From assembly GCF_003334255.1 (NCBI RefSeq), contig NZ_QOWU01000178.1: a DNA stretch of 990 nucleotides. The stretch is one strand, 5' to 3'. The notes beneath the pieces are model-generated. The model did not search any database and was not told the DNA's origin. It worked only from the letters and a program-made list of their open reading frames with translations. The stretch's first letter is position 1; each line of letters begins with the position of its first letter. The DNA comes from Escherichia coli. Lineage in GTDB: Bacteria; Pseudomonadota; Gammaproteobacteria; Enterobacterales; Enterobacteriaceae. The translations under genes and the position numbers were made by a program. Below are positions 1 to 954 of this stretch, one piece after another.

Positions 1-954
1 CTGTTTTTCCGCCGTACGGTGAATTTCCACACCGAAGAGGTGATGCTGGACAAAATTACCGGAAAAACGCCGGTGGCGGCCTATGTCTCCCCGATCGTTG
101 AAGGAAAAGTGCTGCGCCATCGTGGTGGTGAAACCCGCGTGTTGCGTCCGGGCTACGTCAAGCCGAAACACGAATTTAATTACCAGCAGGCGGTTGAGCG
201 CCTTCCTGGTGAAGATCCATCTCAACTGAATGATCCGGCTTACCGCCGTCTGCGTATCATTACCGATAACCTCAAACAGGAAGAGCACGCCATTGTCCAG
301 GTGGAAGAAATGCAGGCGGTAAATGCTGTGTTGTATGGCAAATACACCATGGAAGGAGACCAGTTCGAGAAAATTGAGGTCGATTTTGGCAGGTCGACGA
401 AGAATAACATCACTCAGGGTAGTGGTAAGGAGTGGTCAAAACAGGATCGTGACACGTTCGATCCTACACATGATATTGACCTCTACTGCGACCAGGCCAG
501 CGGTCTTGTGAATATTGCCATTATGGACGGTACCGGCTGGCGTCTTCTGAATGGTTTTAAGCTGTTCCGCGAAAAACTGGATACCCGTCGCGGTTCAAAT
601 TCTCAACTCGAAACGGCAGTGAAAGATCTGGGCGCAGTGGTGTCCTTCAAGGGGTATTACGGCGATCTGGCCATTGTGGTGGCGAAAACGTCTTATATAG
701 CAGAAGACGGTATCGAAAAACGTTATCTTCCAGATGGCATGCTGGTTCTGGGGAATACTGCTGCAGATGGGATCCGTTGTTACGGTGCCATTCAGGATGC
801 TCAGGCGTTGTCCGAAGGTGTGGTGGCCTCTTCCCGTTATCCGAAACACTGGCTGACGGTAGGGGATCCCGCCCGTGAATTTACCATGACGCAGTCCGCG
901 CCGCTGATGGTGTTGCCGGATCCGGATGAGTTTGTGGTGGTACAGGTGAAATAA
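1..954 (+). CDS. E: Major capsid (head) protein, lambda gpE family, HK97-like fold; 5'-partial, N-terminus lies upstream of the window
   Basis: Frame 1 is open from base 1 to the TAA at 952-954. The translation carries blocks I recognise from lambda gpE: YVSPIV, RGG, PGYVKPKHE, DPAYRR, VEEMQAV, GKYTM, NNITQ, KLDTRRGSNS-LETAVKDLG, GDPAREFTM-QSAPLM and a DPDEFV-VQ C-terminus. The first window codons (LFFRRT) align with lambda gpE LFFRES at roughly residue 24 of the 341-aa lambda protein, so about 20-25 N-terminal codons are missing. The GTG at 19 used by the ORF track is an in-frame internal codon, not the real start. Identity to lambda gpE is estimated from memory at roughly two-thirds, not computed. 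Confidence 0.93.
   Translation: MFFRRTVNFHTEEVMLDKITGKTPVAAYVSPIVEGKVLRHRGGETRVLRPGYVKPKHEFNYQQAVERLPGEDPSQLNDPAYRRLRIITDNLKQEEHAIVQVEEMQAVNAVLYGKYTMEGDQFEKIEVDFGRSTKNNITQGSGKEWSKQDRDTFDPTHDIDLYCDQASGLVNIAIMDGTGWRLLNGFKLFREKLDTRRGSNSQLETAVKDLGAVVSFKGYYGDLAIVVAKTSYIAEDGIEKRYLPDGMLVLGNTAADGIRCYGAIQDAQALSEGVVASSRYPKHWLTVGDPAREFTMTQSAPLMVLPDPDEFVVVQVK

Follow-up and report, generated by a model that had tools for sequence, protein, structure and literature searches.

A lambda gpE-family major capsid gene matching that of phage 21, and the terminator-like hairpin that follows it

To which phage does the capsid gene in this stretch of Escherichia coli DNA belong, is it a working gene, and what is the hairpin that stands behind it? 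The window, i.e., the whole 990-base stretch analysed here, is open in frame +1 from its first base and has its sole stop in that frame at 952-954; since the frame is open at base 1, the 5′ end of the gene is cut by the window's left edge. In the identical locus of E. coli ATCC 25922, the annotated start is located 75 bases upstream, which leaves the first 25 codons to the left of the window and codons 26-342 plus the stop within it (the 3′ 93% of a 342-codon capsid gene). The GTG at position 19, given as the start in the list of open reading frames, is a mechanical artefact. In every matching record, the gene is annotated as "major capsid protein". The G+C content of the window is 52.1%, with 56% at third codon positions, which fits E. 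coli.

Positions 1..954, plus strand: major capsid protein gene, 3′ 954 bases, homologue of lambda E and phage 21 gene 7.

The preliminary description had assigned this gene to the lambda gpE type, and matches in Pfam, PHROG and PDB sequences bear that assignment out, at a level that chance could not produce. In the profile search that it had proposed, the 317-aa translation matched the Pfam family Phage_cap_E (PF03864) with E=3e-59 and 201 bits over model positions 22-329 of 329, the absent model positions 1-21 corresponding to the codons that lie outside the window. Major head protein families of PHROG match the translation with E-values as low as 4e-166. Among solved structures, the translation matches two lambda gpE chains over chain residues 26-340 (7vi9, E=1.7e-128; 7sj5, E=1.5e-126), an E. 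coli prophage capsid protein (3bqw, E=8.4e-88) and the capsid protein of phage YSD1 (6xgp, E=2e-27). No NCBIfam family matches the translation, which reflects the coverage of that library and is not counter-evidence to the family assignment. No RNA family was matched in an Rfam search of both strands with E-values of up to 1.

Based on megablast comparisons, all 990 bases are 99.2% identical to phage 21, both in record M81255 and in the complete genome OL657228, and to several lambda-like isolates; in each case the match falls under the major capsid protein. Homologues in phages number 359. We consider it almost certain that the window gene is the lambda gpE-family major capsid gene of a phage 21-type lambdoid phage. 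The earlier reading of a phage that is related to lambda yet distinct from it agrees with the identity to lambda E (62.5% for the protein and 63% for the DNA), and it can be refined, inasmuch as sequence comparison allows the relative to be named as the phage 21 (Jouyvirus) head module. A further match, of 169 bases with 97.6% identity to window positions 1-169, was observed in the 254-kb jumbo-phage record of Aeromonas phage AP1 (MT713136.1). This fragment, at record positions 250228-250396, carries no annotation and stands within the final few kb, where its neighbours are tRNAs and short hypothetical genes; an assembly contaminant or a chimera seems likelier here than a genuine capsid gene.

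The window sequence alone is compatible with either a prophage or a free phage. At least 15 E. coli chromosomes among the matches listed, including that of ATCC 25922 (Seattle 1946), are 100% identical to the window over its 990 bases, whereas the best free-phage record reaches 99.2%, which makes a prophage the likelier source; most likely, the window derives from a prophage in an E. coli chromosome. The window has a match in 1883 of the 5426 complete E. coli genomes (about a third), and in 1579 of them the match covers at least 80% of its length. These matches and the fully identical chromosomes are in line with the enterobacterial host proposed from codon usage and base composition. A second match to the window is present in ATCC 25922 (NZ_CP117235.1) and in many other genomes, with up to five places per genome, and such multiple matches indicate that related capsid genes are carried by several lambdoid prophages within one chromosome.

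In ATCC 25922, the lambdoid prophage that holds the identical sequence is about 50 kb long and, when its boundaries are inspected, is bordered by potB at one end and by the excisionase and integrase genes and potC at the other. On the capsid strand, its gene order is small and large terminase, head-tail joining protein (W-like), portal, S49 protease/scaffold, head decoration protein, major capsid protein, FI, FII and tail genes. The same order of head genes is also annotated in phage 21, lambda, phi80 and phiARM81ld. The phage 21 decoration protein, SHP, is homologous to lambda gpD (PMC7602432). Thus, a gpD-like gene upstream and an FI-like gene downstream, both anticipated from the lambda gene order, are present in the 100%-identical E. 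coli prophage as well as in phage 21. The head and tail module of the ATCC 25922 prophage is annotated as intact throughout. Outside the head module, three pseudogenes were observed, i.e., DUF977 (internal stop), DUF6645 (frameshift) and YdfR (truncated), and the prophage carries hokD, iraM, dicB and a RelE/ParE toxin gene as cargo.

Positions 1-103, 6929-8891 and 9790-10125 of the extracted ATCC 25922 locus: pseudogene and cargo regions of the prophage.

Many lambdoid prophages of E. coli are defective. One alternative is that the capsid gene is a remnant, decaying within a cryptic (defective) prophage and no longer yielding a working protein; in its favour, the ATCC 25922 prophage has pseudogenes elsewhere, for DUF977, DUF6645 and YdfR. 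Against this, all 317 codons in the window are intact, the full 342-codon gene is uninterrupted in the identical ATCC 25922 locus, the entire head and tail module around it is annotated as intact, and only three residues distinguish the protein from that of the plaque-forming phage 21. Codon comparisons with two relatives of 91-93% DNA identity, PhiR5_1 and PhiR12_2_star, point the same way. Third codon positions account for most of the differences, 57 of 71 and 69 of 90, respectively, and in the sense frame synonymous codon changes outnumber nonsynonymous ones by 51 to 14 and 58 to 17; the capsid gene is under purifying selection. We regard the remnant reading as unlikely.

The same relatives dispose of the idea, to which we attach a negligible probability, that the true coding feature is an antisense frame on the minus strand: minus frame 1 has just 2 stops in 330 codons, and antisense open reading frames of 57 and 84 aa were listed, but in this frame only 5 codon changes are synonymous, compared with 60 and 70 that are nonsynonymous, and the relatives have 3 to 4 stops in it. 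Long open antisense frames in such a register are a usual by-product of the codon bias of the sense gene; by its nonsynonymous excess and the stops in relatives, the one observed here is a shadow open reading frame. Two other candidate elements were rejected. The promoter-like site at 449-477 is a single site and equals the shuffle expectation of 0.9, and the candidate terminator on the minus strand, at 74-58, is weak, with 5 pairs, lies inside the gene and is within the shuffle expectation.

We now turn to the spacer that separates the capsid gene from FI, in which the following element was localized.

Positions 962..990, plus strand: intrinsic-terminator-like element in the capsid-FI spacer, composed of a stem-loop at 962-982 and a T run.

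The stem-loop, 962-982, reads GCGGGGGCG AAA TGCCCCCGT and contains 9 pairs, 7 of them G-C. Directly 3′ of it stands GTCTTTTT, and the T run extends past the window end to TTTTTT in the full locus, where the element extends over 20962-20995 in the coordinates of the extracted ATCC 25922 locus. On the transcribed strand, a G+C-rich stem-loop leads directly into a T run, which gives the element the sequence form of an intrinsic (rho-independent) terminator. FI follows, with its ribosome-binding site and ATG, 51 bases past the capsid stop, and the hairpin lies in between. Its energy, -17.7 kcal/mol, is unexceptional, being ninth among the 32-nt windows of the prophage late operon, and folding of the spacer as a whole gives modest z-scores (-1.8 for the window and -2.2 for lambda). 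The case for the hairpin is based on its position, its T run and its recurrence in relatives, not on its folding energy.

Hairpins of unrelated sequence occupy the same place in six other lineages, i.e., lambda, phi80, Enterobacter phage MStein-2023a (N15-like), Aeromonas phiARM81ld, Vibrio K245 and a Proteus Lavrentievavirus (chi-like). In lambda, for instance, the post-capsid hairpin is ATGGCCC TTCG GGGCCAT, followed by TGTTTCT. This recurrence at one position with a changing sequence suggests selection for structure. The hairpin is probably either a partial terminator within the operon or a 3′ stabiliser of the capsid segment of the mRNA. On a more tentative reading, which we consider less likely than not, the hairpin and its T run may form a regulatory device that is conserved in head modules of the gpE family, kept across lambda, phage 21 and the phi80/N15-like, Aeromonas, Vibrio and chi-like phages, that would set a high capsid-to-FI ratio by partial termination or by protection of the mRNA 3′ end. 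In a discussion of P22-like phages, terminators within late operons have been described as common and their roles as unknown, with partial termination, or the blocking of transcription begun without antitermination, among the roles proposed (PMC8022706). Our literature search yielded this general statement on intra-operon terminators, but no paper that deals with the E-FI hairpin of lambda itself.

Two side observations concern hairpins of this kind. In phi80 (NC_021190.1), the annotated FI start is a GTG located 9 bases past the capsid stop, inside the hairpin GTGGCCC TGTC GGGCCAC, and some 35 bases beyond it stands an ATG preceded by GGAG, an arrangement shared with the near-identical MStein-2023a spacer; the FI start codon of phi80 is probably misannotated, and the downstream ATG looks like the true start.

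Positions 2451-2500 of the extracted phi80 (NC_021190.1) locus: post-capsid spacer of phi80.

In the late region of the ATCC 25922 prophage, two more strong intergenic hairpins with T runs are located at 29422-29453 and 34018-34049 of the extracted locus, one between a tail assembly gene and J and the other directly after a lom-like gene. These may be additional intra-operon terminator-like sites.

How the gene would act can be outlined by comparison with lambda. The capsid protein is the main shell protein of the virion in phage 21 and lambda, and proteins of the gpE family have the HK97-type fold; from its 62.5% identity to the solved lambda gpE, the 342-aa protein, with an expected mass of about 38 kDa, is expected to adopt that fold as well. 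In lambda, about 415 gpE subunits, together with portal and protease/scaffold, build a T=7 procapsid, which expands on DNA packaging and thereby exposes sites for the decoration protein. For the present phage, we infer the assembly pathway, the number of copies and what the hairpin does, the pathway being drawn from the homology to lambda gpE and from general knowledge of lambda; nothing in the window sequence hints at a departure from lambda-type assembly. The capsid gene belongs to the Q-antiterminated late operon, which comprises the terminase genes, the W-like gene and those for portal, protease/scaffold, decoration protein, capsid, FI, FII and tail. Trimers of the SHP/gpD-type decoration protein, encoded directly upstream, would stabilise the expanded shell. 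The antiterminated polymerase would read through the post-capsid hairpin or, alternatively, the hairpin would shield the capsid message at its 3′ end.

Both the gene and the phage type are already known, and the annotation is ordinary and of low interest. This accords with the initial judgement of a well-described family and no novel system. What the analysis adds is the placement of the window in a phage 21-type head module that is very common in E. coli, including the reference strain ATCC 25922, and this has little import beyond annotation. A smaller point is the terminator-like hairpin, which is found at the same post-capsid position in many distant relatives.

Among known systems, the closest is phage 21 (genus Jouyvirus), whose gene 7 protein is identical at 339 of 342 residues (99.1%). 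The three substitutions are I57V, Q190L and G204V, with the residue of the window given first. At the DNA level, 8 bases differ within the window, and the intergenic hairpin is identical. The neighbours are also the same, i.e., protease/scaffold, SHP, FI and FII. Considering the 100%-matching prophage of ATCC 25922, phage 21 SHP and the decoration protein are identical at 114 of 116 positions (a translation length that counts the stop), and the FI proteins are identical. The head modules of the two are 95% identical over 7.6 kb, whereas their tail genes are only about 83% identical.

Lambda is the next reference point. Its gpE aligns end to end with the window protein, with 198 of 317 residues identical and one single-residue gap, and it is 341 aa long compared with 342 aa here; the two share Pfam PF03864, and the lambda protein is represented by PDB 7vi9 and 7sj5. 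The 63% DNA identity noted above refers to lambda E and the window gene. The D-E-FI-FII order is shared, and lambda likewise has a stem-loop directly after the capsid stop, although its sequence is unrelated.

PDB entry 3bqw ("Putative capsid protein of prophage") belongs to the same family and aligns across the entire window protein, from which it is, by score, further removed than lambda gpE. The capsid protein of the flagellotropic phage YSD1 (6xgp, 8vji) is a distant member of the same family, which matches residues 2-312 with E of about 2e-27. YSD1 belongs to a different virus family, and the related Casjensviridae capsid proteins are about 30% identical to the window protein; in YSD1-type phages, the capsid protein is likewise paired with a decoration protein.
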